Positions 3,564 through 52,620 of a DNA stretch of 64,000 nucleotides are shown piece by piece. The stretch spans positions 11,629 to 75,628 of the forward strand of contig JBBTVD010000020.1 in the NCBI GenBank assembly GCA_038063415.1. Reading direction: 5' to 3'. The notes under the pieces are model-generated. The model ran no database searches. It was not told the DNA's origin and saw only the letters and a list, made by a program, of their open reading frames with translations. Within the stretch, counting starts at the first letter, position 1. The number at the start of each line of letters is the position of its first letter. A program made the translations under genes and the position numbers. This stretch comes from Patescibacteria group bacterium (GTDB lineage: Bacteria; Patescibacteriota; Microgenomatia; Levybacterales; UBA12049).

Positions 3564-4247
3564 ATGGCAAAAGAGGGAGAAATGATTCATGAAGAAGAGC
3601 GTACTTTACAGTCGCTTCCATCGGAAGTGCTTGTGCCAAGTATTACGCTTATTGATACCGTGGCTCGGTTAGTTGCTGCTAGAAGAAAAAGAGAGGACTC
3701 ACTCATCTCTTCAGATACTTCACCCCTACCTTTGCCAGTGCGTTTAGATGACCCTGAAAGTTTAGATAGATTTAATTTTTATTACCATTACCCCGCTTAC
3801 GATAATGATAAGGAAGTTATCGAAGACAATACCGAGGTAGCCGAGAAAAGGAAGCGTGATAATAATCTTGCGAAGCTTACAGCGATGAGAGAAGTAGTCC
3901 CTGGGTTGATAAGAGATCCCCGAGCGTATCTTTTGGGACATGCAGATTCAGTTAAGCCAGATCTGAAACAAAGAACTGCTAATTTGCTCGCAGGTTTTTC
4001 TGATGAAGCACTTGCTGATCGATACAGCGCAGCTGGTGAGTTAGAAGCTGTTGGTGTTTTGGGCAGTGCTGTGTATGATCTTGATGGAAAAACCTTTGCT
4101 CGGTTGGAAGCTAATGTCGCGAGCGCACATGCAGCCCTAACTCTTGAAGAAAAGAGAATTACTCCTGTCCGTACCCGCGATACTTTATTAGGAGGTCTAG
4201 TACGTAGATCTTTGAGGAGATTACCTCGAAGAAGAACAAGGCCTTGA
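3564..4247 (+). CDS. hypothetical protein (227 aa)
   Basis: Complete ORF between the two HTH gene copies. No recognisable domain. Arg-rich C-terminus. Confidence 0.4.
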   Translation: MAKEGEMIHEEERTLQSLPSEVLVPSITLIDTVARLVAARRKREDSLISSDTSPLPLPVRLDDPESLDRFNFYYHYPAYDNDKEVIEDNTEVAEKRKRDNNLAKLTAMREVVPGLIRDPRAYLLGHADSVKPDLKQRTANLLAGFSDEALADRYSAAGELEAVGVLGSAVYDLDGKTFARLEANVASAHAALTLEEKRITPVRTRDTLLGGLVRRSLRRLPRRRTRP

Positions 4248-9818: not shown

Positions 9819-10880
9819 GGTTGCCTAGATAGAGAACGGTTGTCCTCCTTTCTTTTCTTGCAGGATAATAACACATTCAGCAGGAGTTTTGTAACCTAAC
9901 GAACGATGAAACCGTTGAGTATTATACTTTGTATTAAATGCCATACACCGCTCATTGATCATGTCCAATTCATCTAAAAGGTCTGTTTGGTAATTGAAGT
10001 ATTCGTACTCTGCTGTCTGGTGTAGCCGCTCAACTCGTCCGTTTTGTTTCGGACAGTGAGGGTTAGTAAAGTAGTGGGGAATGCCCCAATCTACAAGCTC
10101 TTTATGGAAGTTCAGCAAATATTCACTGCCATTGTCAGTATTCACAGCGTGGATTGGAAACGGGAAATACTCCCGTACTCGTCTGAGAAAATCTTGGCCT
10201 GAGGCACTTGAAATGGTCTTGTAACAATACAAAAAGCCATACCTAGATTTGCAATCTATCGCTGTGAACAGATAAAACTTTTTTGTTAACACATATAAAT
10301 ATTTTGTGTCTACCTGCACCAATGAACCAAGTGCTCTTTCTCGTAACTCTACGCTTGCTTTCACCCGTGCAATCGCATAATTCCTGTGTTTCTTCATCCG
10401 TTTCTTGTGTTGCATATTCTGAAGCTCTGCATGCCGATTAATCACTTTTTGGATACTTGTTTGCCCAACCTTCACACCTTCTCGCCTTAACTCTTCCTGG
10501 ATCTCGTATTTGCTCTTCTCTGGATCTGCTTTTCGAATCGCAACCACTCGCTGTTGTACCCACAGAGGTGTGGTCATCTCTCGTACCCTTTTCGGTCGTC
10601 TCGTTTTGCTATCAAACTCAAGGCTTTGCAAGTTCCTCTTGTCAAAACGGTTCTTCCATCGGTAAAACACACTCTTGGATAAACTAAAATGTCTGCACGT
10701 CGCTTCTGCATTCTTCCCATGTCCGTAGTACCAATCTATCCATTGCAGTCGCTTCAGGGCTTCCTTTGAAAGTGACGCTACCCTTATCTCTTCGGTCGGT
10801 AAAATGTTGTAGTGACGCATGACCGCGTCAGTATATCTCTTGCTCAACCTAGCTTCAACCGTTCTCTATGTATCGCAACC
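9819..10880 (-). mobile_element. IS481-family insertion sequence (~1.06 kb) with imperfect ~24-bp terminal inverted repeats
   Basis: Left end 'ggttgcctagatagagaacggttg' (9819-9842) matches the reverse complement of the right end (10856-10880, 'caaccgttctctatgtatcgcaacc'). The enclosed gene has an intact DDE integrase core. Confidence 0.7.
9825..10847 (-). CDS. IS481-family transposase (HTH plus rve/DDE integrase core), apparently intact, 340 aa
   Basis: Motifs 'VQVDTKYL', 'NTDNGSEY' and 'NPHCPKQNGRVERLHQT' are typical of the IS481/IS3 superfamily integrase core. Confidence 0.8.
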   Translation of the reverse strand: MSKRYTDAVMRHYNILPTEEIRVASLSKEALKRLQWIDWYYGHGKNAEATCRHFSLSKSVFYRWKNRFDKRNLQSLEFDSKTRRPKRVREMTTPLWVQQRVVAIRKADPEKSKYEIQEELRREGVKVGQTSIQKVINRHAELQNMQHKKRMKKHRNYAIARVKASVELRERALGSLVQVDTKYLYVLTKKFYLFTAIDCKSRYGFLYCYKTISSASGQDFLRRVREYFPFPIHAVNTDNGSEYLLNFHKELVDWGIPHYFTNPHCPKQNGRVERLHQTAEYEYFNYQTDLLDELDMINERCMAFNTKYNTQRFHRSLGYKTPAECVIILQEKKGGQPFSI

Positions 10881-37131: not shown

Positions 37132-37371
37132 ATGCAAATGCAGCAATCAGTTATTCAAATAGGAAATTCTCTGGGTATTGTGATCCCAAAAGGTCTTCGT
37201 GGTGAATTACAAGCAGGAGATAAGGTACTTATTACCGGAAAGCCAACCAATATTTTGATTACACCCGCAAAAACGAATAAAACAGGCGGTGTGGATGCAA
37301 AGTTTATGCAAATGGTTGACGAATTTATTACCGAGCACGAAGATGTCCTTAAGGAATTAGCAAAACGGTGA
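37132..37371 (+). CDS. AbrB/MazE-fold antitoxin (SpoVT/AbrB domain)
   Basis: 'VIQIGNSLGIVIPKGLRGELQAGDKVLI' is the swapped-hairpin AbrB domain. It overlaps the downstream Doc gene by 4 nt. Confidence 0.65.
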   Translation: MQMQQSVIQIGNSLGIVIPKGLRGELQAGDKVLITGKPTNILITPAKTNKTGGVDAKFMQMVDEFITEHEDVLKELAKR

Positions 37372-37757
37372 ATTATTTGACTCCACAACAAGTTTTGGCA
37401 ATTCATGATGCTGTCATCAAGCGGACAGGTGGTTCTCACGGCTTGCGTGATGTAGGGCTTTTGGAATCAGCTGTCTACCGTCCACAGGCAAGTTATGATG
37501 GAGGGGATCTCTATCCGACACTTTTTGAAAAGGCTGCTGCTTTGTTCCATTCATTACTTAAAAATCATCCCTTTGTTGACGGCAACAAACGCACATCGTT
37601 GGCTTCTGCTGGATTATTTTTGCAGATAAATAACTTGCAATTAGTGAATACACATGAGAAGGAGCTGGAGTTTGCTCTGAAGGTAGAGAATGCAAGTTTG
37701 ACGTTTGAGGAAATAACTCTTTGGTTTAAGCAAAATACAAAAAAGTTATCTACATAA
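37368..37757 (+). CDS. doc: Doc (death-on-curing) toxin, Fic/Doc family
   Basis: Canonical Doc motif 'HPFVDGNKRT'. 129 aa. Confidence 0.8.
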   Translation: MNYLTPQQVLAIHDAVIKRTGGSHGLRDVGLLESAVYRPQASYDGGDLYPTLFEKAAALFHSLLKNHPFVDGNKRTSLASAGLFLQINNLQLVNTHEKELEFALKVENASLTFEEITLWFKQNTKKLST

Positions 37758-39445: not shown

Positions 39446-40288
39446 CTACTTTGGTTGACCAACTTCATGATTCAATAAAAAAATTACGCCTTCTGTTTGT
39501 CTAAATGAATTTGGCCAGGAAGTCCTTCGGTCCACACGAGCTCTGATTTCATCACCAGCTTGGGGACTTGGATAGACTAACGAGCCCTTTGGAGATCTCA
39601 ATTCAGTATAGCTACAAACTAATGTCGCTGGGCTTGTTCGTGGACCTAAATCTAGCGGAGTATGATAGTAATCTGACGGTGTTGTATCCTCGACTACGGT
39701 ACCCTGAATGTATCCTACTTTACCAGATGCTGCTAGATTACGATAATAACCCCGAGAATTCGGGGTAGAAATTGGTTGTTCTATACCTAGTACACGAGTA
39801 ATTTTAGCCCTTCTTGATGGTGCATAGATGTTTTTTTCTGGGCTTAATTCGACTTGCAGTGCAACGTTTACTCCCGCCAGTTGTTGCCATGCCGCCGCTT
39901 CCTGAGCATCTTCCATCTTGAAATACAAACGGTAGCTAGGAGAGTGTCGTCGATCATCTCTTACGTTCATCCAGGCAGTTTCTATTCCTCCAAATAGCAT
40001 TTCTCCTAATACTAAAGCTCGTGATTGGTCTGGAGCGTTTAAGCCTGCTGCTTCTGGATTGTATTTAGGAGTATATAGATTTTCGTTCGCCATGGATCCA
40101 AATGGCCAATGCGTTACAACGCTATCGCTATCTTCAACACGTGCCACAAATGTTTCCGATGATAATCCACGTTTTTTAAATTCAGCTGTCATGGAGGGAT
40201 TATAACGAATTTTGAAGAGATGATCAACTATCTGTACTATCGGATGTAATAGGCTCTTGTGAAAGACGTTAGAACTCTTTACGCACAA
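39446..40288 (-). CDS. hypothetical protein; start uncertain (possibly the internal Met 'MTAEFKK')
   Basis: ORF only. The annotated N-terminus overlaps motif-1 copy a. Confidence 0.35.
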   Translation of the reverse strand: MCVKSSNVFHKSLLHPIVQIVDHLFKIRYNPSMTAEFKKRGLSSETFVARVEDSDSVVTHWPFGSMANENLYTPKYNPEAAGLNAPDQSRALVLGEMLFGGIETAWMNVRDDRRHSPSYRLYFKMEDAQEAAAWQQLAGVNVALQVELSPEKNIYAPSRRAKITRVLGIEQPISTPNSRGYYRNLAASGKVGYIQGTVVEDTTPSDYYHTPLDLGPRTSPATLVCSYTELRSPKGSLVYPSPQAGDEIRARVDRRTSWPNSFRQTEGVIFLLNHEVGQPK

Positions 40289-40305
40289 AATGGTGAGTTT
40301 TACGG
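40254..40305. repeat. motif-1 copy a (promoter-like 5' flanking repeat, core 'GTTAGAAyTyTTTACGCACArAAT...')
   Basis: Aligned by eye with the copies at 43054, 47186, 48584 and 51004. Confidence 0.6.
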
Positions 40306-40381
40306 CCCCATATTGAATACTAACTAGATTTTATCCTTTAATGTTTTAATTGTGCTATAAATAATGTAAAATACACTTCTT

Positions 40382-41134
40382 ATGGCACGACCAGAAGGAA
40401 ATCCTATTGAAGGTTTAAGAAAGCTTATTCACGCAGCTTTTATGGAAGTAGTTCGTTCTTTTGCAGGGATTCTTGCATCTCTAAAAGTGCAAAAGAGGAA
40501 ACGCAGGATGTTCGTTATTTCTAGTAGTATAGGATTTGGCATTACCTATATATTATTTCTTCTTACCTATGGAATTCTCCCCCAATTTGATCGAACAAAT
40601 GTAAGACTGCCTGTATTCTGCGAAGGGACTCAAGGCGACCTTACGATACCTTCTCGATTGAGATATGCATTGCCTAATGGAGAGATTGGTATATTGATAA
40701 AGAGTAACGCTGAAACTGCTGTTGTAGCCACTATTGATACAAGTAATCCATCTGATGCAAGCACGGTCTTTGTGGTAAGCAAAGATGGCAATAAAATGCT
40801 GAGAACGATGCATTTTGAGAACGATGTTATTAGTGCCGCTATCGATGAGGGAATTGTTTACATTTTCAATGACAAGTTAGGGTATCTTCTGGACGAACAT
40901 ACTGGCGAGGATGAAAAAACATTTCTTAAAATAGATAACTATGGTGGTCTTTCCCAATCTAATAACCCCATTCTTCCATTTGGTTCTGATGGTTATTGGT
41001 ATATGGAAACGACTGGTATCATCTCAAGTTGGCATATTGATGGGAAAGTCAAATCACGACCTCGTTTGGTGTTTAATGGCATTGCGCGAGGTTGTTTTAT
41101 ATCAGGTGAGACTGGTCAGGTTATTAACCTCTGA
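40382..41134 (+). CDS. membrane protein with a C-terminal soluble domain (paralogue A, 250 aa)
   Basis: TM 'FVISSSIGFGITYILFLLTYGIL'. From 'NGEIGILIKSNAET' onward it is identical to 44454..45266. The N-terminal ~100 aa are only ~65% identical. Confidence 0.5.
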   Translation: MARPEGNPIEGLRKLIHAAFMEVVRSFAGILASLKVQKRKRRMFVISSSIGFGITYILFLLTYGILPQFDRTNVRLPVFCEGTQGDLTIPSRLRYALPNGEIGILIKSNAETAVVATIDTSNPSDASTVFVVSKDGNKMLRTMHFENDVISAAIDEGIVYIFNDKLGYLLDEHTGEDEKTFLKIDNYGGLSQSNNPILPFGSDGYWYMETTGIISSWHIDGKVKSRPRLVFNGIARGCFISGETGQVINL

Positions 41135-41192
41135 GAAGTAATTATGCATTCACTTGAAAAGCCCATAGTTTTATGATAAGATTTACGACTCT

Positions 41193-42548
41193 ATGGCGAG
41201 AGTAGATCATGAATCAGGAAGAACCAGTGTACTCGATCTAAATCGAGCAAAAGCAGTTGGATTCTTGGATTATAACTTGAGAGGACAAAGACATAAAACT
41301 TCAGTCATGCATGATTGGCGTGATTTTTTGGCAAGTGGAAGGACCGGAGGTTATCTTGAATTACCTACAGGCGCAGATAAGACCATTGTAGCTGAATTTG
41401 TGGCACTTGGTCTGAAGACAATTGTTACCTCATCAACAAGAGAGACCTTAGATGAAACGAAAGCAACAATTGAGAGTCATGCAGGGGGGATTGAGGTAAC
41501 TAATTATGATGGCCGCCTAACAGGTGTAAGAGGAAATGTCATCAACACAACATTACCTTCCCTTGAAACATTATCAGATATTCCAGCGGTTGCAAAAGGA
41601 GTAGAATTGATCATTGTTGATGATGATACATTGGGAAGACAACGCCAGGAACTGTGGCGGAGATTTCCAAATGCGCTTTTTGTAGGACTTACCACTACAT
41701 CGGATTTTTCTCAACGTGATCAATTAGAACGCAGAGGGACGGTAGATCCGGGTGAACGTTGGACGGGAATGTTTAAAAATCGTATTCATAGGCTTAGCAG
41801 AGAGGAATTAGTGACAAAAGCTAAAATAGGAGAAAGAATAGCAGCAGCAACTGACCTTCCATCAATAAATAATGTCCTTGATGATATGGTAATAATGGTA
41901 CGCAAACGTAATCAAGCAGGATCAGTTTTAGATTTTTATAGAATGATGGCAGAACTCCTTCCAGACACGCTTCGTCTAGATAAACAAGAAATACTTTTAG
42001 AAGGAATAAGTAATACGAATGTTGATCAACAAAAAATGGGAAAAAAAGCCTTGTTGTTCCTTAATCTGAGATCTGTCTTTACCGTAGTACAACCGCATTT
42101 TTCTGCTGATGAAGAGACAAATGTAGAGATCTTGCAAACAGCATTATTGCAATGTTATGAGAAAATGAAAAATAAAAAAACAACTCCGCAACAAATATTA
42201 AGGGAAGGGGCGACTGCTTCATTGGTAAGAAAGCAAAGAGAGATGCAGGAGGTAATCGTCTATCGGGATACGAGAGAGCCCGATAGGGAAGATGGAAGAC
42301 AAGCTGATCTTATGAGCGCTGTTGAGGAGAGGGCTATGATTGCTTCTGTTTTAGGAGAACTTTCTGAAAGAGAAAGAAAAGTGATAGAATTACGTTTTGG
42401 GATTGGAACTAATGATTGGAGAGAACAAACTCTGGAGGAAGTCGGTCATGTAGTTGGTGTATCAGGGAGAAGAATTAGCGTAATTGAGACAAAAACATTA
42501 AGTAAGTTACGAGACACGAGATTAAGGAAGTTTCTCGATGATTTATGA
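41193..42548 (+). CDS. fusion protein: degenerate SF2-helicase/ResIII-like N-terminal domain plus C-terminal sigma-70 region-4 HTH (451 aa)
   Basis: N-terminal 'GYLELPTGADKTIVAEFVA' resembles a Walker A/motif I with Gly-to-Ala/Asp substitutions. 'ELIIVDDD' sits in the DExH position. C-terminal 'LSERERKVIELRFGIGTNDWREQTLEEVGHVVGVSGRRISVIETKTLSKLR' is a classic sigma-70 region 4. Sigma regions 2 and 3 are not evident. Confidence 0.5.
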   Translation: MARVDHESGRTSVLDLNRAKAVGFLDYNLRGQRHKTSVMHDWRDFLASGRTGGYLELPTGADKTIVAEFVALGLKTIVTSSTRETLDETKATIESHAGGIEVTNYDGRLTGVRGNVINTTLPSLETLSDIPAVAKGVELIIVDDDTLGRQRQELWRRFPNALFVGLTTTSDFSQRDQLERRGTVDPGERWTGMFKNRIHRLSREELVTKAKIGERIAAATDLPSINNVLDDMVIMVRKRNQAGSVLDFYRMMAELLPDTLRLDKQEILLEGISNTNVDQQKMGKKALLFLNLRSVFTVVQPHFSADEETNVEILQTALLQCYEKMKNKKTTPQQILREGATASLVRKQREMQEVIVYRDTREPDREDGRQADLMSAVEERAMIASVLGELSERERKVIELRFGIGTNDWREQTLEEVGHVVGVSGRRISVIETKTLSKLRDTRLRKFLDDL

Positions 42549-42643
42549 TAGTACAAAGGTTTGAGTCTGTCTACCGTGAGCCATATTTAGCTCATATTAT
42601 ATCAAGAAAGTCTTTATACAACTCTACTGATTTCTGCTAAAAT

Positions 42644-42955
42644 ATGGCAATGAGTCAAAAGTTGAGTTTCAAACCATCGGATATTGAAAAAGTATATAAA
42701 GATCAGGCCAAAAGATATTCAGGCTTTGCTAATGATTCTTTCAGTTGGCTTTATCTTGAAAAGCCATGGGGCACAACATCACCGCTATTTTTGAGACCAG
42801 TTGCTGATATTGTAAATGAAACAATAAAAGCGGGTTTTACTATAAAGTCATTAGAAGAACCCTCTGTTCCATTGGCAGCAAAAAAAGCAGACCATGTGAA
42901 TTATTTGAAGTATTCTTTTTGCCCATCACGAATTGCTGTCATTGCCACAAAATAA
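42644..42955 (+). CDS. small hypothetical protein (103 aa), possibly a remnant of a methyltransferase C-terminus
   Basis: ORF with a weak resemblance to the C-terminal beta strands of class I methyltransferases. Low confidence. Confidence 0.25.
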   Translation: MAMSQKLSFKPSDIEKVYKDQAKRYSGFANDSFSWLYLEKPWGTTSPLFLRPVADIVNETIKAGFTIKSLEEPSVPLAAKKADHVNYLKYSFCPSRIAVIATK

Positions 42956-43053
42956 AAATGATGAATCAACCACAAAGCTTGTTGGTGCAACGTAGGGGGC
43001 TAAGGAGTTTTGTTGCAATGATCCAAATGCTCATGAGAAGAGTATATCATTAA

Positions 43054-43100
43054 GTTAGAATTTTTTACGCACAGAATCAGGAGTTTAAATTCCAAGCTTT
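43054..43100. repeat. motif-1 copy b (upstream of the Fic gene)
   Basis: 'GTTAGAATTTTTTACGCACAGAATCAGGAGTTTAAATTCCAAGCTTT'. Confidence 0.6.
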
Positions 43101-43198
43101 ATATGAATTACTTTAGGGATGGTGTTAAATGTTAAAATGGCAATTGTTAAATGTTCGATAGTGTGATATTCTCTTTTTAGCTTCAAATTTAGCTAAAT

Positions 43199-44371
43199 AT
43201 GTTAAATATTGAAAATAAAATGAGTAAGTATTCATACGACAAATTATTACTAGTACAGCCCAAATTTAACTCTACTTTGACAGATTTAATTATTGAGTTA
43301 GATTATTTAAGGAAAAAGCCTTTAGGTGGTAGCACTCCACCTCGGATATTTTTCCAATTAAAAAGTATATTTCATACCTTAGAAAGTATTGGGTCTGCAC
43401 GTATTGAAGGAAATCATACGACTATTGCTGAGTTTATTGAAACGAAGTTAGAGAAACATAAGAGTAAAGACGAAAAAATAAATGAAATTCAAAATATAGA
43501 AGCAGCAATGGATTTTATTGATAATTCTATAGATGCAACACCTATAAATGACGCTTTCATACGTGAGTTACATAAGAGAGTTGTGGGTGGTTTATCTCCT
43601 CATGAAGAAGGAGATACTCATCCTGGTGAATATCGAAAAGGAAATATTAAAATTGCTGGTACACAACATGTACCCCCAGAATCTCTGCAAGTCATTGATT
43701 ATATGCAGGAGTTAAATGGATTTATTAATAATGACGATCCACATAAATATGATCTGCTTAAAATTGCATTAGCACATCATCGTTTTGTATGGATTCACCC
43801 CTTTGGAAATGGTAATGGTCGTACTGTTAGATTACTTACCTACGCACAACTTATAAAGTCAGGTTTTAATGTTCACGTAGGAAGAATTATTAACCCTACT
43901 GCAATTTTTTGTAGCGATCGAGAGAAATATTATTCGTATTTATCGAAAGCAGATGCAGGGGATAGTACTGGCCTCTTAAATTGGAGTGAGTATGTGTTAT
44001 CTGGATTGAAACAGGAGATAGAAAAAATTGACCATTTGTTAGATTATAGTTATTTATCTGAAAAAATATTACTTCCTGCCATTAGTTTCTCACTTGATAG
44101 AAAAGTTATTACTCAGCTTGAGGCGGATATTTTAAAAATTGCGGTTAAAAAACAATTATTTCAAGCATCAGACTTAAAAGAACTATTTCCCAACACAATT
44201 CCGGCTCAAGTTTCTCGTTATATCAGTCGTTTGAAAGAAAAAAAGATGATTGCTCCGGAAAATAAAAATAGTAGAAAGTACCTTATAGATTTTGGTAATA
44301 ATTACTTACTTCGGGGTGTTATTAAAATGTTAGATCAACATGGTTTTTTACCTCTTAAAGGAGAGTCTTAA
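43199..44371 (+). CDS. Fic family protein, class II (N-terminal inhibitory helix), with a C-terminal winged-helix-like domain (390 aa)
   Basis: Fic motif 'HPFGNGNGRTVRLL', in which Asn occupies the usual D/E position. An inhibitory-helix motif (S/T)xxxE(G/N) is present as 'SARIEGN'. Confidence 0.75.
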   Translation: MLNIENKMSKYSYDKLLLVQPKFNSTLTDLIIELDYLRKKPLGGSTPPRIFFQLKSIFHTLESIGSARIEGNHTTIAEFIETKLEKHKSKDEKINEIQNIEAAMDFIDNSIDATPINDAFIRELHKRVVGGLSPHEEGDTHPGEYRKGNIKIAGTQHVPPESLQVIDYMQELNGFINNDDPHKYDLLKIALAHHRFVWIHPFGNGNGRTVRLLTYAQLIKSGFNVHVGRIINPTAIFCSDREKYYSYLSKADAGDSTGLLNWSEYVLSGLKQEIEKIDHLLDYSYLSEKILLPAISFSLDRKVITQLEADILKIAVKKQLFQASDLKELFPNTIPAQVSRYISRLKEKKMIAPENKNSRKYLIDFGNNYLLRGVIKMLDQHGFLPLKGES

Positions 44372-44374
44372 AAG

Positions 44375-44428
44375 GTTCGAGTCCGTCCGTCGTAAAGCTA
44401 GAGTTCGAGGCTGAAATGTTGGGCAGGA
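44375..44428. repeat. motif-2 copy A (3' flanking repeat 'GGTTCGAGTCCGTCCGyCGTrAGGCTAGAGTTCGAGGCTrAAT...')
   Basis: Starts 4 nt after the Fic stop codon. Aligned with the copies at 48506 and 52507. Confidence 0.6.
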
Positions 44429-44453
44429 CAAACGTCTGCTATACTTATTAAGG

Positions 44454-45266
44454 ATGACGCCTTTACAAATAGGACTTGGTACCAGTATATTTATCAATCT
44501 AATAATTGGGCTACTCTATATCGCTATCCTACAAGAGCCAGGTTCAGCATATTATTTTTTTCTCTTTCTTACTTTCTTCAGCGGTTCCTTTCTTGCAGGA
44601 ATTCTTGCATCTCTAAAAGCGCAAAAAAGGAAACGCAGGGAGTTCGTTGTTTCTAGTAGTATAGGGTTTGGCATTACCTGTATGTTATTTCTTATTACCT
44701 ATGGAGTTCTTCCCCAATTTGATCGAACAAATGTTAGATTACCTGTATTCTGCGAAGGAAATCAAGGCGACCTTAAGATACCTTTTCAATTGAGATACAC
44801 TTTACCCAATGGAGAGATTGGTATATTGATAAAGAGTAACGCTGAAACTGCTGTTGTAGCCACTATTGATACAAGTAATCCATCTGATGCAAGCACGGTC
44901 TTTGTGGTAAGCAAAGATGGCAATAAAATGCTGAGAACGATGCATTTTGAGAACGATGTTATTAGTGCCGCTATCGATGAGGGAATTGTTTACATTTTCA
45001 ATGACAAGTTAGGGTATCTTCTGGACGAACATACTGGCGAGGATGAAAAAACATTTCTTAAAATAGATAACTATGGTGGTCTTTCCCAATCTAATAACCC
45101 CATTCTTCCATTTGGTTCTGATGGTTATTGGTATATGGAAACGACTGGTATCATCTCAAGTTGGCATATTGATGGGAAAGTCAAATCACGACCTCGTTTG
45201 GTGTTTAATGGCATTGCGCGAGGTTGTTTTATATCAGGTGAGACTGGTCAGGTTATTAACCTCTGA
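44454..45266 (+). CDS. membrane protein paralogue B (270 aa); N-terminus diverged from 40382..41134, remainder identical
   Basis: See 40382..41134. Confidence 0.5.
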   Translation: MTPLQIGLGTSIFINLIIGLLYIAILQEPGSAYYFFLFLTFFSGSFLAGILASLKAQKRKRREFVVSSSIGFGITCMLFLITYGVLPQFDRTNVRLPVFCEGNQGDLKIPFQLRYTLPNGEIGILIKSNAETAVVATIDTSNPSDASTVFVVSKDGNKMLRTMHFENDVISAAIDEGIVYIFNDKLGYLLDEHTGEDEKTFLKIDNYGGLSQSNNPILPFGSDGYWYMETTGIISSWHIDGKVKSRPRLVFNGIARGCFISGETGQVINL

Positions 45267-45324
45267 GAAGTAATTATGCATTCACTTGAAAAGCCCATAG
45301 TTTTATGATAAGATTTACGACTCT

Positions 45325-46680
45325 ATGGCGAGAGTAGATCATGAATCAGGAAGAACCAGTGTACTCGATCTAAATCGAGCAAAAGCAGTTGGATTCTTGG
45401 ATTATAACTTGAGAGGACAAAGACATAAAACTTCAGTCATGCATGATTGGCGTGATTTTTTGGCAAGTGGAAGGACCGGAGGTTATCTTGAATTACCTAC
45501 AGGCGCAGATAAGACCATTGTAGCTGAATTTGTGGCACTTGGTCTGAAGACAATTGTTACCTCATCAACAAGAGAGACCTTAGATGAAACGAAAGCAACA
45601 ATTGAGAGTCATGCAGGGGGGATTGAGGTAACTAATTATGATGGCCGCCTAACAGGTGTAAGAGGAAATGTCATCAACACAACATTACCTTCCCTTGAAA
45701 CATTATCAGATATTCCAGCGGTTGCAAAAGGAGTAGAATTGATCATTGTTGATGATGATACATTGGGAAGACAACGCCAGGAACTGTGGCGGAGATTTCC
45801 AAATGCGCTTTTTGTAGGACTTACCACTACATCGGATTTTTCTCAACGTGATCAATTAGAACGCAGAGGGACGGTAGATCCGGGTGAACGTTGGACGGGA
45901 ATGTTTAAAAATCGTATTCATAGGCTTAGCAGAGAGGAATTAGTGACAAAAGCTAAAATAGGAGAAAGAATAGCAGCAGCAACTGACCTTCCATCAATAA
46001 ATAATGTCCTTGATGATATGGTAATAATGGTACGCAAACGTAATCAAGCAGGATCAGTTTTAGATTTTTATAGAATGATGGCAGAACTCCTTCCAGACAC
46101 GCTTCGTCTAGATAAACAAGAAATACTTTTAGAAGGAATAAGTAATACGAATGTTGATCAACAAAAAATGGGAAAAAAAGCCTTGTTGTTCCTTAATCTG
46201 AGATCTGTCTTTACCGTAGTACAACCGCATTTTTCTGCTGATGAAGAGACAAATGTAGAGATCTTGCAAACAGCATTATTGCAATGTTATGAGAAAATGA
46301 AAAATAAAAAAACAACTCCGCAACAAATATTAAGGGAAGGGGCGACTGCTTCATTGGTAAGAAAGCAAAGAGAGATGCAGGAGGTAATCGTCTATCGGGA
46401 TACGAGAGAGCCCGATAGGGAAGATGGAAGACAAGCTGATCTTATGAGCGCTGTTGAGGAGAGGGCTATGATTGCTTCTGTTTTAGGAGAACTTTCTGAA
46501 AGAGAAAGAAAAGTGATAGAATTACGTTTTGGGATTGGAACTAATGATTGGAGAGAACAAACTCTGGAGGAAGTCGGTCATGTAGTTGGTGTATCAGGGA
46601 GAAGAATTAGCGTAATTGAGACAAAAACATTAAGTAAGTTACGAGACACGAGATTAAGGAAGTTTCTCGATGATTTATGA
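45325..46680 (+). CDS. helicase-like/sigma-70 region-4 fusion protein, second identical copy
   Basis: Identical 451-aa translation to 41193..42548. Confidence 0.5.
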   Translation: MARVDHESGRTSVLDLNRAKAVGFLDYNLRGQRHKTSVMHDWRDFLASGRTGGYLELPTGADKTIVAEFVALGLKTIVTSSTRETLDETKATIESHAGGIEVTNYDGRLTGVRGNVINTTLPSLETLSDIPAVAKGVELIIVDDDTLGRQRQELWRRFPNALFVGLTTTSDFSQRDQLERRGTVDPGERWTGMFKNRIHRLSREELVTKAKIGERIAAATDLPSINNVLDDMVIMVRKRNQAGSVLDFYRMMAELLPDTLRLDKQEILLEGISNTNVDQQKMGKKALLFLNLRSVFTVVQPHFSADEETNVEILQTALLQCYEKMKNKKTTPQQILREGATASLVRKQREMQEVIVYRDTREPDREDGRQADLMSAVEERAMIASVLGELSERERKVIELRFGIGTNDWREQTLEEVGHVVGVSGRRISVIETKTLSKLRDTRLRKFLDDL

Positions 46681-46775
46681 TAGTACAAAGGTTTGAGTCT
46701 GTCTACCGTGAGCCATATTTAGCTCATATTATATCAAGAAAGTCTTTATACAACTCTACTGATTTCTGCTAAAAT

Positions 46776-47087
46776 ATGGCAATGAGTCAAAAGTTGAGTT
46801 TCAAACCATCGGATATTGAAAAAGTATATAAAGATCAGGCCAAAAGATATTCAGGCTTTGCTAATGATTCTTTCAGTTGGCTTTATCTTGAAAAGCCATG
46901 GGGCACAACATCACCGCTATTTTTGAGACCAGTTGCTGATATTGTAAATGAAACAATAAAAGCGGGTTTTACTATAAAGTCATTAGAAGAACCCTCTGTT
47001 CCATTGGCAGCAAAAAAAGCAGACCATGTGAATTATTTGAAGTATTCTTTTTGCCCATCACGAATTGCTGTCATTGCCACAAAATAA
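46776..47087 (+). CDS. small hypothetical protein, second identical copy
   Basis: Identical to 42644..42955. Confidence 0.25.
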   Translation: MAMSQKLSFKPSDIEKVYKDQAKRYSGFANDSFSWLYLEKPWGTTSPLFLRPVADIVNETIKAGFTIKSLEEPSVPLAAKKADHVNYLKYSFCPSRIAVIATK

Positions 47088-47185
47088 AAATGATGAATCA
47101 ACCACAAAGCTTGTTGGTGCAACGTAGGGGGCTAAGGAGTTTTGTTGCAATGATCCAAATGCTCATGAGAAGAGTATATCATTAA

Positions 47186-47232
47186 GTTAGAATTTTTTAC
47201 GCACAGAATCAGGAGTTTAAATTCCAAGCTTT
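47186..47232. repeat. motif-1 copy c (duplicate of copy b inside unit 2)
   Basis: Offset 4132 from copy b. Confidence 0.6.
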
Positions 47233-47330
47233 ATATGAATTACTTTAGGGATGGTGTTAAATGTTAAAATGGCAATTGTTAAATGTTCGATAGTGTGATA
47301 TTCTCTTTTTAGCTTCAAATTTAGCTAAAT

Positions 47331-48503
47331 ATGTTAAATATTGAAAATAAAATGAGTAAGTATTCATACGACAAATTATTACTAGTACAGCCCAAATTTA
47401 ACTCTACTTTGACAGATTTAATTATTGAGTTAGATTATTTAAGGAAAAAGCCTTTAGGTGGTAGCACTCCACCTCGGATATTTTTCCAATTAAAAAGTAT
47501 ATTTCATACCTTAGAAAGTATTGGGTCTGCACGTATTGAAGGAAATCATACGACTATTGCTGAGTTTATTGAAACGAAGTTAGAGAAACATAAGAGTAAA
47601 GACGAAAAAATAAATGAAATTCAAAATATAGAAGCAGCAATGGATTTTATTGATAATTCTATAGATGCAACACCTATAAATGACGCTTTCATACGTGAGT
47701 TACATAAGAGAGTTGTGGGTGGTTTATCTCCTCATGAAGAAGGAGATACTCATCCTGGTGAATATCGAAAAGGAAATATTAAAATTGCTGGTACACAACA
47801 TGTACCCCCAGAATCTCTGCAAGTCATTGATTATATGCAGGAGTTAAATGGATTTATTAATAATGACGATCCACATAAATATGATCTGCTTAAAATTGCA
47901 TTAGCACATCATCGTTTTGTATGGATTCACCCCTTTGGAAATGGTAATGGTCGTACTGTTAGATTACTTACCTACGCACAACTTATAAAGTCAGGTTTTA
48001 ATGTTCACGTAGGAAGAATTATTAACCCTACTGCAATTTTTTGTAGCGATCGAGAGAAATATTATTCGTATTTATCGAAAGCAGATGCAGGGGATAGTAC
48101 TGGCCTCTTAAATTGGAGTGAGTATGTGTTATCTGGATTGAAACAGGAGATAGAAAAAATTGACCATTTGTTAGATTATAGTTATTTATCTGAAAAAATA
48201 TTACTTCCTGCCATTAGTTTCTCACTTGATAGAAAAGTTATTACTCAGCTTGAGGCGGATATTTTAAAAATTGCGGTTAAAAAACAATTATTTCAAGCAT
48301 CAGACTTAAAAGAACTATTTCCCAACACAATTCCGGCTCAAGTTTCTCGTTATATCAGTCGTTTGAAAGAAAAAAAGATGATTGCTCCGGAAAATAAAAA
48401 TAGTAGAAAGTACCTTATAGATTTTGGTAATAATTACTTACTTCGGGGTGTTATTAAAATGTTAGATCAACATGGGTTTTTGCCTCTTAAAGGTGAGTCC
48501 TAA
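47331..48503 (+). CDS. Fic family protein, class II, second copy
   Basis: Identical 390-aa translation to 43199..44371. A few silent or near-terminal nucleotide differences occur in the last ~30 bp. Confidence 0.75.
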   Translation: MLNIENKMSKYSYDKLLLVQPKFNSTLTDLIIELDYLRKKPLGGSTPPRIFFQLKSIFHTLESIGSARIEGNHTTIAEFIETKLEKHKSKDEKINEIQNIEAAMDFIDNSIDATPINDAFIRELHKRVVGGLSPHEEGDTHPGEYRKGNIKIAGTQHVPPESLQVIDYMQELNGFINNDDPHKYDLLKIALAHHRFVWIHPFGNGNGRTVRLLTYAQLIKSGFNVHVGRIINPTAIFCSDREKYYSYLSKADAGDSTGLLNWSEYVLSGLKQEIEKIDHLLDYSYLSEKILLPAISFSLDRKVITQLEADILKIAVKKQLFQASDLKELFPNTIPAQVSRYISRLKEKKMIAPENKNSRKYLIDFGNNYLLRGVIKMLDQHGFLPLKGES

Positions 48504-48505
48504 AA

Positions 48506-48560
48506 GGTTCGATTCTATCTGCCGTGAGGCTAGAATTCGAGGATAAATTATTGGGCAAGG
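48506..48560. repeat. motif-2 copy B
   Basis: 'GGTTCGATTCTATCTGCCGTGAGGCTAGAATTCGAGGATAAATTATTGGGCAAGG'. Confidence 0.6.
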
Positions 48561-48583
48561 GTACGCGCGCGGCGTTAGAACTC

Positions 48584-48620
48584 TTTACGCACAAAATTGT
48601 GAGTTTTATATTCCAGCTTT
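48584..48620. repeat. motif-1 copy d (best sigma70 match: -35 TTTACG, 17-bp spacer, -10 TATATT), not followed by a gene
   Basis: 'GTTAGAACTCTTTACGCACAAAATTGTGAGTTTTATATTCCAGCTTT' contains the palindrome CACAA-AA-TTGTG. Confidence 0.55.
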
Positions 48621-48700
48621 TATTCAAATCATTCAAGAAGACATGTACTTCAGCTTGTGTAAGGCATATTCATATACGGTGCAATACGAAGCTAATAAGC

Positions 48701-49069
48701 CTATTTAATTACGCGGACTTGTCTGTGTTGATCGAGTTCATCTGCGTTAGTGATAGCCCATTGCTGTAATCCTTGTAAAGGTTCAACGAGACTAATTCCG
48801 AGCTTTGTTAGTGAATAGGAAACCTTTGTAACGTTCCCTTTTATGACTTTACGTTCAATAAAGCCATCTGTTTCGAGCTTGCGTAACGTTTGCGTCAACA
48901 TTTTTTGAGAAATACATTCAATTTTTCGTTTGAGTTCCCCAAAATAATAGGGCTGTTCCGAAAGTGCTGCTAGAACCAAAATAGTCCACTTATCTGCAAT
49001 TTTCATAAGTGCATAGCGGGTAATGCATACTGCGGAAAATATATTAAATTTAGAAGTTGGTTTCATCAC
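48701..49069 (-). CDS. HxlR-family winged-helix transcriptional regulator
   Basis: 'CISQKMLTQTLRKLETDGFIERKVIKGNVTKVSYSLTKLG' is the typical HxlR core. It is divergent from a reductase gene. Confidence 0.65.
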   Translation of the reverse strand: MMKPTSKFNIFSAVCITRYALMKIADKWTILVLAALSEQPYYFGELKRKIECISQKMLTQTLRKLETDGFIERKVIKGNVTKVSYSLTKLGISLVEPLQGLQQWAITNADELDQHRQVRVIK

Positions 49070-49148
49070 TAGTTACCTTTTAGTGCCTTCTTGAAAAAAA
49101 GAAGGTAGTCACTTATAGTAACTATATGATAACACAAGGAGACTGTAT

Positions 49149-49814
49149 ATGAAAATAGCAATTATTGGAGCGGGTAATATCGGTGGATATCTCGCAACAC
49201 AGTTAAGTAAAGTTGGCCATGGAGTCACTATCTGTTTTACACGAAATGAAGAAAAGCTTAAAGAACGAGCTAGTAAAATTGGCAATGGTGTTCAGGGCTC
49301 TTCTGTACGTGAAGCGGTAAAAAAGAGTGAGCTAGTGATTTTATCTACCAGGTGGGAAGATATTGATGCCGCCTTGTTACAAGCGAAAGATTTATCAGAC
49401 AAAATAGTCATAGATGCAACAAATCAATATGGAGCAACAGGTCTTATAGATATTGGTACAAGCGTCGCAGTATTTAACCAAGCTCGTATGCCCGGAGTAA
49501 AACTCGTCAGGACTTTTAATATGTTCTTTGCAACGTATCTGTCCGAAGTTGGTCGTGGTCAACATCGACCGGTCGCTATGTTTTTTGCTTCCGAAGATAA
49601 ATACGCAAAAGAAGTTGCCACCCAGATTATAGCTGACATAGGTTTTGAACCAGTATATTTAGGTGGTTTGGATGTTGCTAAGTTTATTGAGATGCCGAAT
49701 GGAATGCTTGTCGGAAAAATATATCGACCCAAACAGGCACAAGCAATTGCTAAAGCTGTACAACAAGGTGATCTTGCTTTGGCTTCTCAACTGGCTAAAA
49801 ATGTAAGCGAGTAG
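49149..49814 (+). CDS. NADP-binding oxidoreductase, F420-dependent NADP reductase (Npd)-like family
   Basis: Rossmann motif 'MKIAIIGAGNIGGYLATQL'. About 220 aa, typical of PF03807-type proteins. Confidence 0.55.
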   Translation: MKIAIIGAGNIGGYLATQLSKVGHGVTICFTRNEEKLKERASKIGNGVQGSSVREAVKKSELVILSTRWEDIDAALLQAKDLSDKIVIDATNQYGATGLIDIGTSVAVFNQARMPGVKLVRTFNMFFATYLSEVGRGQHRPVAMFFASEDKYAKEVATQIIADIGFEPVYLGGLDVAKFIEMPNGMLVGKIYRPKQAQAIAKAVQQGDLALASQLAKNVSE

Positions 49815-49897
49815 CCGCATTTTCTTTTAGGAAAAGGAGATCTTGTCCGCAGTTCGTAATTAGTGGTAGTAATTTTTCGGTCGTATATAGATACTTT

Positions 49898-50845
49898 TTA
49901 GAAACTATACCTGCCATTTACTGCGAGTTTAGCACCGTTAACAATTGCGGTTGTTCCATCATATTTATATACGAATGTACGTCCTGCTGAATCAGCTGCC
50001 ACAGAAAGAGCAAAAGAGCTTGAGGTATTTTGCCCAGAGCCCGTTTCAAACTGATCTTTTGCTGCAACCGGAAGATTAATTTGCGTATATCCTGACCCTC
50101 CGGAGTTAGCATCATATGTGAAATCAACCCAATAGAACATTACGTTCCCTAAAATGAAAAACGTTGCTTTGTTAGTTGTTGGATTATTAGTAAAAGCACC
50201 TCCACCCGAAGTATAAGTTGGTGTGAAATTAAAGGTTCCAGGATAGCCTTGTGGACTTGCTTCATAAGAATAGTAGGGATTTGTTATTGCCGAATTGGCA
50301 AGAGAATAATCATTATTAGCAAAAAGAGTTACAGTTGTATCGGTTGAATAGCTACTTGAGAGTACAACACCATAATAAGTTGTAGAATTATTAGTAAGTT
50401 TCACACGTGTACCTTTAGTAAAGATTGCTGTTCGGTCAGTACCTGATATTTTGAAGCTATTTGCAGAAACATATGTCCATGTATCATTCGCTGTAGTCCA
50501 ACCATCTTGATTAGCTAAAGACAATGTTGCTCCAGAACTACTTCTGGATATAGTCAAACCATTGCCCGCATTAACATCTTTGAGCCAAGTTACTTGAGTT
50601 AAACCGGTATCGCAGCTTGCCCCCGGTGACACTAGTGTGACGATTCCGCGAGAGTCTTCGCATGCATTAATCAGACTACTATCACCCCAACTTCCAAAAC
50701 TAGCATGTACCAAACGAACAAAGTAGGGTCCAAAAAGTGTAAACGTAATTCCGAAGAGAATCACAAGAAGAGGAATACCAAAAGAGAAAATAAGACGGGT
50801 TCGCTTAACGATATGAAGGTATGATGTAATCTTAAGACGGTTCAT
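49898..50845 (-). CDS. membrane-anchored Ser/Thr/Gly/Asn-rich secreted hypothetical protein
   Basis: TM 'LIFSFGIPLLVILFGITFTLFG'. Low-complexity beta-rich body. Confidence 0.4.
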   Translation of the reverse strand: MNRLKITSYLHIVKRTRLIFSFGIPLLVILFGITFTLFGPYFVRLVHASFGSWGDSSLINACEDSRGIVTLVSPGASCDTGLTQVTWLKDVNAGNGLTISRSSSGATLSLANQDGWTTANDTWTYVSANSFKISGTDRTAIFTKGTRVKLTNNSTTYYGVVLSSSYSTDTTVTLFANNDYSLANSAITNPYYSYEASPQGYPGTFNFTPTYTSGGGAFTNNPTTNKATFFILGNVMFYWVDFTYDANSGGSGYTQINLPVAAKDQFETGSGQNTSSSFALSVAADSAGRTFVYKYDGTTAIVNGAKLAVNGRYSF

Positions 50846-51003
50846 ATTATATTTATTAACTTAATTCAATCTAATAATAAATGTAACTGTAAGTCAATAG
50901 GAAAAATAAATTTGTACATTGTGATAAGGACGTTCGATTCCATTTATCCGTTAGAATATTTTAGCAATTTTTGAGGCTAAAAATGAAATAAAACCGTGGC
51001 AGG

Positions 51004-51065
51004 TTCTCGTGAAGGACATTAGAATTTTTACGCACAAAATCCTGATTTTTAGATTTCCAGCTTTT
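51004..51065. repeat. motif-1 copy e (upstream of the 453-aa gene; -35 TTTACG, 17-bp spacer, -10 TAGATT)
   Basis: 'CTCGTGAAGGACATTAGAATTTTTACGCACAAAATCCTGATTTTTAGATTTCCAGCTTTT'. Confidence 0.6.
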
Positions 51066-51099
51066 AGATTAAAATTTGTTACTATCAGCCATGATATAA

Positions 51100-52461
51100 T
51101 TGAAATATATGAGTGAGATACCTCGTCCTACAGACGTAACCCCTACAGACTATCAGAGGGAGATAGTATCATTATTAGGATCAGATGGTTCTGAACAGAA
51201 TAAATATGAGCTAACTCTTGTGAACAGGCCAGATTGGCTTCCTCCTGAGAGTGGGGTATATTTTTTTCAGGATTCAGGAAAATGTAGCCAAATTCATACT
51301 ATACAGAGCGAGGATAATATAGAATATCAGGTTTCTTCTAATGCTGATCCGACCTTTCCTGGTTTCCAGGTTGGTGTGCCATGGTCAATTGGCAGAAGAT
51401 TAGCACCCAACGATCGTATATTTCTCAATAGCTCTTCATTCGTTGTCGTGCATACACCTGACGTTGAACCTATTCTCTATGATATTTCTCCTGAAGAAGT
51501 AGCTGTACCACCTCAAAGGAGTGAAAGAACATTCTCTTCTAAAGATATGATGTCTGGAATCCTTTCCAGAGAGATTTTTACTCAGACTTCACTGCCTGGT
51601 GTTGTGCGAGATCCACTAGTTGTAGCTGCAATGATTGCTGAGGAAAAAGAACGATCCAAGAGGGAGAGTAGGGGCGCGAGACCAGAAGCTCAATTTACTG
51701 CCATAGAGCCAGCGGTGGTCACTGAAGTAGATCTCAATGCTCCAAGGACAAAAATACTTAGTATCACCAAAGACTTCGATGGAAGTGCTATGGGGTTCCA
51801 TATATATATAATCACTGTTGCTGGTGAGAATAAAAGAGAGCTTAGAGTCCCTAATACTGGTGTATTTATACACATTGATGAGGATACGTCTCTTGTACGC
51901 AGACTTCAAACTTCATCATTATCACCACACATCTCAACCGAAGATGCTCCTACAGAATATATTGTTATGTTAGGTAAAGAACTCTCTGATGGTGAAGATT
52001 GGATGCGTGAGTGGCAGTTAAAGAATGAGCTTGCTTCTTCTGCAAGTGAACAATCTGGTACCTCATCAGCGCTTTTAGTTCAAAAGAGTGTAACACCAAA
52101 TGATCCGGCTCATCCTCAAGAAGCAAGAGTTGTTCCAGCGCAACTATCCTTTGGAAGCATTAGCTTTACTGGTCAATTTCTTGCAAGACATATAGGTGGC
52201 TCATATAGACAAATGATTTTAGAGGCACTTTTTGAAGCTAGCATGCCAGGGTATGAATCGACCCTATATAAGGCAAAGGACATACTGGAAGAGGTTATAA
52301 GAAACGCTTTACAAGGTGAAGCTGAAAGAATTTTTTCTGATGAGCAGAGTCCGCAGCCGGTAGCTAGAGGGTTTACATCAGTAATTGCAGAAGTAAAGAA
52401 AATTGTTGAAGGAAATAGAAGGCAAAAAGCTTGGGATGATCAGGTTGGAATGTATAGATAG
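51100..52461 (+). CDS. hypothetical protein (453 aa), bracketed by motif-1 and motif-2 like the Fic genes
   Basis: ORF only. Confidence 0.4.
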   Translation: MKYMSEIPRPTDVTPTDYQREIVSLLGSDGSEQNKYELTLVNRPDWLPPESGVYFFQDSGKCSQIHTIQSEDNIEYQVSSNADPTFPGFQVGVPWSIGRRLAPNDRIFLNSSSFVVVHTPDVEPILYDISPEEVAVPPQRSERTFSSKDMMSGILSREIFTQTSLPGVVRDPLVVAAMIAEEKERSKRESRGARPEAQFTAIEPAVVTEVDLNAPRTKILSITKDFDGSAMGFHIYIITVAGENKRELRVPNTGVFIHIDEDTSLVRRLQTSSLSPHISTEDAPTEYIVMLGKELSDGEDWMREWQLKNELASSASEQSGTSSALLVQKSVTPNDPAHPQEARVVPAQLSFGSISFTGQFLARHIGGSYRQMILEALFEASMPGYESTLYKAKDILEEVIRNALQGEAERIFSDEQSPQPVARGFTSVIAEVKKIVEGNRRQKAWDDQVGMYR

Positions 52462-52506
52462 ATACGTTTTCTTCCATTGTTTTTCGATGTTAGAAAGGGG
52501 TTCGAG

Positions 52507-52548
52507 TCCGTCCGCCGTGAGGCTAGAGTGCGAGGCTAAATTTATCAG
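52507..52548. repeat. motif-2 copy C, directly abutting the 3' end of tRNA-Trp
   Basis: 'GGGGTTCGAGTCCGTCCGCCGTGAGGCTAGAGTGCGAGGCTAAATTTATCAG'. Confidence 0.6.
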
Positions 52549-52620
52549 CAGGGGCGCACAGATTCGAACTGTGAAAAGCAGTTTTGGAGACTGCTGTGAT
52601 AGCCATTTCACCACACCCCT
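52549..52620 (-). tRNA. tRNA-Trp (anticodon CCA)
   Basis: Minus-strand fold: acceptor AGGGGTG/CGCCCCT (one G.U pair), D arm GTGA-AATGGCTA-TCAC, anticodon arm GCAGT-CTCCAAA-ACTGC, 4-nt variable loop, T arm CACAG-TTCGAAT-CTGTG, discriminator G. No CCA is encoded. Confidence 0.8.

Follow-up and report, generated by a model that had tools for sequence, protein, structure and literature searches.

The window analysed here is a 64,000-nucleotide stretch of contig JBBTVD010000020.1 (assembly GCA_038063415.1, Patescibacteria group bacterium), and the element in question is a unit of four genes, named here A, B, C and fic, that is found in it twice. We consider it probable that these are genuine head-to-tail paralogous units of 4.13 kb in a groundwater genome, lying downstream of tRNA-Trp in an accessory stretch (about 40.2-52.5 kb) that is low in GC and varies between strains. 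Judged from the sequence, what they carry appears to be a cargo and not a coordinated system, namely one intact Fic protein, one membrane protein and two decayed genes. Gene conversion keeps tandem paralogues alike, a phenomenon known as concerted evolution, and the most likely nature of this locus is an ordinary one, in which tandem paralogues undergo concerted evolution within an accessory island that is decaying, in a short-read metagenome-assembled genome (MAG).

When the two units were compared position by position at an offset of 4132, positions 40676-44343 and 44808-48475 agreed at 3668 of 3668 positions without a mismatch. This identical tract of 3668 bp, designated R, is on the + strand in both copies and covers the 3' two-thirds of the first A gene (A1), B, C and fic up to 28 nt before its stop codon. 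The original prediction had placed the repeat at the same offset with ends at 44340 and 48472, which was confirmed except that the exact run goes on for another 3 bp. An exact repeat this long cannot have arisen by chance. Outside R the identity is lower on both sides. The left shoulder of unit 1 (40461..40675, + strand, inside gene A) is mismatched with 44593-44807 at 25 of 215 nt, which is 88% identity, and further out 40300-40460 and 44432-44592 are unrelated. The right shoulders, 44344-44425 and 48476-48557, are mismatched at 16 of 82 nt (80% identity), and overall the divergence of the shoulders is 12-20%. The last 28 coding nucleotides of fic differ at 4 positions between the copies and all four differences are synonymous since both Fic proteins are identical. 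The ORF translations also bore out that B (451 aa), C (103 aa) and Fic (390 aa) are the same in both units. The arrangement is therefore a head-to-tail direct repeat in which the interior is more alike than the edges, as is found in a tandem duplication with conversion, and the graded shoulders around the exact tract agree with the earlier view of old paralogy at the edges and an identical interior. Because the shoulders have diverged the duplication itself would be old. The two copies of R are joined by a piece, designated J (44344..44807, + strand), that contains in order the diverged 3' end of fic, an intergenic element that we call the post-element (44372-44430), 25 nt, the intact N-terminus of the second A gene (A2) and the left shoulder of unit 2. 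The GC content across 40001-50000 is 0.35-0.39 compared to 0.40-0.43 in the flanks and the GC skew is raised in the same interval; the lower GC content over 40-50 kb fits an accessory region.

The two A genes differ in a way that bears on the direction of change at this locus. A2 (44454..45266, + strand, 270 aa) can be aligned over its whole length with proteins of 270-290 aa from more than 100 clusters, to which it is 41-58% identical, and in its structure model, which has a mean predicted local distance difference test (pLDDT) score of 86.6, three transmembrane helices precede a beta-rich extracytoplasmic domain. It is therefore taken to be an intact member of its family. In A1 (40382..41134, + strand, 250 aa) the N-terminus is replaced and only the third of these helices is left. 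From NGEIGILIK onward the two proteins do not differ, and over residues 27-250 of A1 their identity is 94%, but the first 26 residues of A1 and the first 46 residues of A2 are unrelated. Thus, of what had been predicted for gene A, the identity from NGEIGILIK onward stands, whereas the figure of about 65% for the N-terminal third is an average over a stretch of about 82% identity and an unrelated one. The first 46 residues of A2 are encoded by J and include two of the three transmembrane helices common to the more than 100 homologues. The invariant residues of the family, Y22, L26, E28 and Y34, are also in the J-encoded part of A2 and are missing from A1, and J encodes the sole intact N-terminus of gene A at this locus. 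Gene A had no match in Pfam, PHROG, PADLOC or NCBIfam, and a fold search with the A2 model gave no significant neighbour but only weak beta-propeller-like matches, the best with an E value of 4.6e-3.

In exact look-ups all the proteins were found together on a single NCBI MAG contig (96,609 bp, labelled Patescibacteria group bacterium) in which both copies are annotated, A1 as MEK7571882 and A2 as MEK7571886, with two accessions for each of B, C and Fic. The same locus is carried on contigs from Hainich groundwater well H14. The contig L001/L005 (ERZ1292645, 34.9 kb, coverage 6) and the contig L004 (Logan ERR3858141) are each equal to the window minus exactly one 4132-bp unit, with an A1-type left side and an HxlR-type right side, and J is missing from these one-copy contigs. 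Two other contigs start in the repeat, L003 with the first position of the identical tract (44808) and L002 34 nt further in (44842). At the positions that correspond to 43454-5 and 47586-7, where AA stands in the window, all four contigs, L001 to L004, have CG, so that residue 86 of Fic is R instead of K, and because of this dinucleotide difference they appear to belong to a slightly different haplotype from that of the window. Look-ups with A2 or with the Fic variant of the window gave no further contigs bearing J. Since duplicating a truncated A1 cannot yield an intact N-terminus, the two-copy form is not derivable from the one-copy form, and on this sequence evidence the one-copy form would be a deletion or an assembler collapse of the two-copy form and not its ancestor. 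The Hainich metagenomes are short-read data that were assembled with metaSPAdes per replicate (PMC8672522), and we infer that the contig of the window has the same origin. If so, the interior copies would be one graph edge used twice and the perfect identity would be partly by construction. The caution in the original prediction about an assembly artefact was warranted, and collapse in the assembly probably applies to these sister contigs rather than to the window.

A probable explanation for the two units is that an ancestral arrangement, in which A-B-C-fic lay between two copies of the post-element with its core (post-core), was duplicated by unequal recombination between these flanking post-core repeats. 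Such recombination would give the junction that is observed, post-core and then intact A. The 5' end of the left copy would later have been remodelled, by which A1 would have received its new N-terminus, and the interior would have been kept identical, or recently made so, by gene conversion between the copies. Alternatively, small interior differences may have been flattened when a short-read assembler passed twice along the same graph edge. The one-copy form would come about by recombination between the copies or by collapse in the assembler. The locus is like converted tandem paralogues in its head-to-tail order, its identical core, its diverged edges and the presence of a deletion derivative in the population. 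It is unlike the usual converted tandem duplicates in that its identity is maybe partly a product of the assembler and in that the genes are mostly decayed with no dosage benefit apparent. Several points weigh against genuine paralogous units. The unequal crossover needs a later, unobserved rearrangement at the start of A1; with CG in place of AA the one-copy contigs are of another haplotype than the window, which makes a mixed-strain path possible; J is present in only one contig of the searched collection; the evidence for two copies, and for the link from fic through J to A2, within one genome comes from assembled contigs; and the perfect interior may be either biological or a product of the assembler.

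These points bring up the explanation that strains were mixed in the assembly, which we regard as rather unlikely. In that case each genome would have one complete unit, and the assembler would have looped both strain paths through a shared 3.7-kb edge, the second strain carrying A2 preceded by a Fic 3' remnant only. This would agree with the short-read metaSPAdes assemblies, with the one-copy contigs coming from two assemblers, with the CG/AA variant inside the repeat, which implies more than one haplotype, and with the presence of J in one contig only. However, J continues the 3' end of fic, with changes that are synonymous only, into intact A, and from this it follows that Fic-type sequence must directly precede A-B-C-fic in at least one genome. 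The starts of L003 at the repeat edge and of L002 34 nt inside it also argue against strain mixing, as such starts would arise where the repeat is entered from two different sequences in that sample. It is less probable still that amplification is ongoing, with at least three tandem copies in at least part of the population that are reported as the minimal two. A loop in a short-read graph would normally be traversed once, so that two would be a lower bound, and the perfectly identical interior fits recent events, but the shoulders are diverged and the two flank types are old and distinct, one-copy haplotypes exist and there is no sign of selection for dosage.

Among the four gene products only Fic, besides A2, appears to be intact. 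The fic gene (43199..44371, and 47331-48503 in copy 2, + strand) encodes 390 aa with a C-terminal domain and is predicted, from its sequence, to specify an autoinhibited class II AMPylase of the SoFic type. Its Fic domain scored 67.6 bits against PF02661, for which the cut-off is 24, and its core is HPFGNGNGRTVR, with N at the D/E position of the motif HxFx(D/E)GNGRxxR. The same variant is carried by PDB 7XUX ('Fido domain-containing protein'), which Fic matches over its full length with an E value of 1.8e-116. The inhibitory helix, SARIEGN at residues 66-72, lies N-terminal to the core on the same chain and aligns with GSARIEGN of 7XUX, the two proteins sharing the helix sequence GSARIEGNHTT. 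Fic also matched phrog_5978 (E 7e-71) and the SoFic model of PADLOC (E 5.7e-48), and it is below the cut-off of the NCBIfam SoFic equivalog NF046030 (42.2 bits compared to 550). A known case of a SoFic-type class II Fic AMPylase is EcSofic/AS1 (PMC12249575). Unlike the known SoFic-type AMPylases the present one is in a Patescibacteria host, its gene is duplicated and lineage-specific intergenic boxes are found at its bounds. Two other copies of fic were found, one in L007 (9528-10982) that is a box-flanked, frameshifted pseudogene with 88% nucleotide identity in a different neighbourhood, and one in L061 (221-1505) that is intact, has 94% nucleotide identity and no boxes, and is in a third neighbourhood. 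The window and L007 are alike around fic from box to box. The 5' leader of fic (43113-43165 and 47245-47297) is kept in both L007 and L061, and in the window it has two copies of TGTTAAATGTT; it may be an operator or promoter region. A second Fic-fold gene is located 2.6 kb upstream of the repeat, where a MazE-like antitoxin gene (79 aa) overlaps a gene for a Doc/Fic-family toxin (129 aa) at 37132-37757 (+ strand), and two GNAT acetyltransferase genes come after this pair.

B (41193..42548, and 45325-46680 in copy 2, + strand, 451 aa) appears to be the relic of a fusion between a superfamily 2 (SF2) helicase and sigma-70 region 4. In motif I it has PTGADKT where the family has PTGSGKT, in motif II it has VDDD with a gap of 3 aa where the family has CDEAHT, and in motif III it has TTTS where the family has TATP; the SF2 set of GxGKT, DExH and TAT/SAT is not present in B. 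It is also without the RecA2 (Helicase_C) domain, which its relatives have as PF00271, and relative to the full-length family it is short of about 250 aa, which is the whole of Helicase_C/RecA2, plus about 80 aa of the linker. Sigma-70 region 4 is intact, with 55.5 bits to PF04545 compared to the cut-off of 24.1 and with matches to region 4 of RpoD/SigA in PDB. For region 2 there was no match to Sigma70_r2 of Pfam, and TIGR02937 gave 46.2 bits over residues 288-441 compared to 42.9. B was also considered as MzaA of the MZA defence system, but this was rejected as it scored 51.9 bits compared to an equivalog cut-off of 800 and the match was confined to the region 4 end.

A word-indexed search among 5.8 billion proteins gave no full-length homologue of B, and sigma region 4 alone was matched. 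When residues 1-370 were used in an exhaustive HMMER search, 190 representative proteins were obtained at E<=1e-3, the best of which are 780-1100 aa long and have ResIII/DEAD, Helicase_C and Sigma70_r4 domains. Residues 1-208 of B are 52% identical to one of these proteins (P0158), with which the helical linker and sigma region 4 also align. A single-sequence AlphaFold model of B was uninformative (pLDDT 41). From these alignments B would be an internally deleted, motif-degenerate member of a helicase-sigma region 4 family of the candidate phyla radiation (CPR). This family is found in Levybacteria, Saccharibacteria and other CPR MAGs, in which its members are annotated as sigma-70 family or as helicase, and no paper on helicase-sigma fusions in CPR was found in the literature searched. 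The full-length relatives (P0158-P0183, about 780-1100 aa, ResIII and Helicase_C fused to sigma region 4) include those at 7947-10418 of L010 and 8298-10670 of L015. At these two inspected loci the gene adjoins gyrB (L010) or dnaG-rpoD-uvrD (L015) and, unlike these full-length relatives, B sits in an accessory island. C (42644..42955, and 46776-47087 in copy 2, + strand, 103 aa) had no Pfam match. Its residues 34-103 align at 71% identity with the final 70 aa of P0309, a class I S-adenosylmethionine (SAM)-dependent methyltransferase. As it is without the SAM-binding Rossmann core it does not qualify as a methyltransferase and appears to be the C-terminal remnant of one.

The domain assignments of the original prediction, a membrane protein, a degenerate SF2-like domain with sigma-70 region 4, and a class II Fic with SARIEGN, were thus upheld. 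Its suggestion that the four genes form an undescribed functional system found no support, as B is a relic, C is a remnant, and A, B and fic are unlinked elsewhere. Three A homologues on long contigs are in unrelated neighbourhoods with no B or fic, seven genomic loci with full-length B relatives, mostly in CPR MAGs, have no A, C or fic, and in the loci inspected the A-family and B-family genes outside this locus were never linked to each other or to fic. Thus, the same four-gene neighbourhood was looked for in relatives and the genes were found scattered instead, which is the outcome that the original prediction had itself named as speaking against a functional module. One could still propose a defence or regulatory module that was duplicated under selection, in which A would be the sensor, B the regulator, C an accessory protein and Fic the effector. 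In its favour, the four genes are co-oriented and tightly spaced, the reading frames of B and C are still open, Fic matches the PADLOC SoFic model and sigma region 4 of B is well preserved. But this linkage is found in no relative examined, fic is by itself in L007 and L061 at 88-94% nucleotide identity, B has lost RecA2 and the ATPase motifs and has no full-length homologue in the large protein search, and C has no SAM-binding core, and we therefore hold such a module to be very improbable. The candidate for a new four-gene system is hereby downgraded to a duplicated patch of an accessory island, which saves effort on the relics B and C.

The intergenic sequences around these genes contain two conserved elements, the post-element, which is about 60 nt long, and a second one that we call the box. 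A profile that was built solely from external copies of the box detected it five times in the window, each time on the + strand and within 40.2-51.1 kb. One is upstream of A1 (40250..40309, consensus GCAGGGGCTCGTGAACGACGTTAGAACTTTTTACGCACAAAAT, E 4.5e-14), one is upstream of each fic with its right half only (43052..43089 and the duplicate at 47184-47221), one is in a complete composite site after the second fic (48504..48615, made up of a post-element at 48504-48563, the core, and a box at 48547-48615), and one is upstream of a 453-aa ORF (50993..51059, the ORF being at 51100-52461). A 36-nt direct repeat at 40267 and 48573, the same at 35 of 36 positions, brackets the interval of the original prediction and has related copies upstream of each fic; it is part of the conserved box. 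A post-element comes after the stop codon of each fic copy and of the 453-aa ORF, at 44372, 48504 and 52499 (E about 1e-18), and the last of these (52499..52554, + strand) extends into tRNA-Trp (52548-52620, minus strand) at the 3' end of the latter. The sequence CAGCAGGGGC, which is common to the box and to the end of the post-element and tRNA-Trp, is the antisense of the 3' strand of the tRNA acceptor. When J was compared with the sequence after the second fic, the homology was found to stop inside the core GGCAGG (TTGGGCAGG), after which J has 25 nt and the intact start of A2 and the other copy has a box. The unit thus has its right edge within the core of an intergenic site that is present repeatedly and also lies directly next to tRNA-Trp. 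Directly after the stop of B, at 42556-42580 and 46688-46712, there is a weak and partial post-element (E 0.005), a hint that B may once have been the last gene of a separate cassette.

Exact matches to the box core were found on 14 JGI metagenome contigs, often as arrays in the same orientation; L052 has four to five box copies 1.5-1.7 kb apart, L057 has two that flank a Fic-domain gene and L007 has three. In L050 the same flank follows tRNA-Trp and a box is 3.3 kb away in the same relative orientation. In the window (40250-52554), in L007 and in L047-L060, arrays of boxes and post-elements bound 1-3 genes.

Several known kinds of element were considered for these sites. The sequence GGTTCGAGTCC after the fic stop is T-arm-like, but a tRNA fragment as att site was rejected as no tRNA was found there by ARAGORN or Rfam, and the element that bears it is the repeated flank that also follows tRNA-Trp. 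The box was rejected as an integron attC since RYYYAAC was upstream in 1 of 23 instances, there was no consistent hairpin and the folding z-scores were -0.6 to +1.3. No Rfam match at E<=5 and no folding signal were obtained for the post-element and box as a structured RNA or terminator. A promoter (TTTACG-17-TATATT) fits many copies of the box, but it is not sufficient as several boxes face convergent genes. A phage origin was also rejected since there was no box and no Fic relative in IMG/VR. No integrase was found among the ORFs of the window that were scanned, and the sole recombinase-like gene was an rve-type one, for a DDE transposase of the insertion sequence type (9825-10847, minus strand) with rve, rve_3 and helix-turn-helix domains.

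We find it doubtful, on present likenesses, that the interval 40.2-52.5 kb together with the similar arrays on at least 14 metagenome contigs represents an undescribed system of cassette capture in Patescibacteria-like bacteria. The arrays are like integron arrays, clusters of attC sites lacking integrases (CALINs) and tRNA islands in having same-orientation sites of 45-140 nt, 1.3-2.8 kb apart, that bound 1-3 accessory genes. They are also like these in that one copy of the site abuts the 3' end of a tRNA and the Fic 'cassette' is shared box to box between genomes. They are unlike them in having no RYYYAAC/GTTRRRY pair, no hairpin signal and, in the ORFs scanned, no integrase, and in that the conserved part is mostly downstream of the putative crossover. 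A literature search on integrons in Patescibacteria gave nothing relevant. If there were such a system, each cassette would have 1-3 genes bounded by a post-element, the core GCAGGGGC and a box, the core also being present at the 3' end of tRNA-Trp; a cassette such as that of fic would move between genomes by recombination at this core, and the tandem duplication would be a by-product of recombination between two composite sites. The idea that a free 4132-bp circle of R and J, an excised cassette or a small plasmid, lay beside a one-copy chromosome and was read as tandem is hardly credible: the circle would close with post-core and then A2, as excision at a repeated site would give, but the unit encodes no replication or recombinase gene and its B is degenerate, there is no integrase in the scanned parts of the window and nothing related was found in IMG/VR.

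With tandem paralogues as the preferred explanation, more interesting leads than the repeat itself are the cassette arrays with boxes near tRNA-Trp and the family of CPR helicase-sigma region 4 fusions. One lead is that Patescibacteria carry SoFic-type fic genes that move between genomes as small units. Another is that a widespread and apparently undescribed CPR fusion of a helicase with sigma region 4 is located beside core genes of replication and transcription. A third is that a conserved intergenic site marks the boundaries of cassettes and coincides with one edge of the duplication, and this site may point to a mechanism of recombination in organisms whose mobile genetics is little known.

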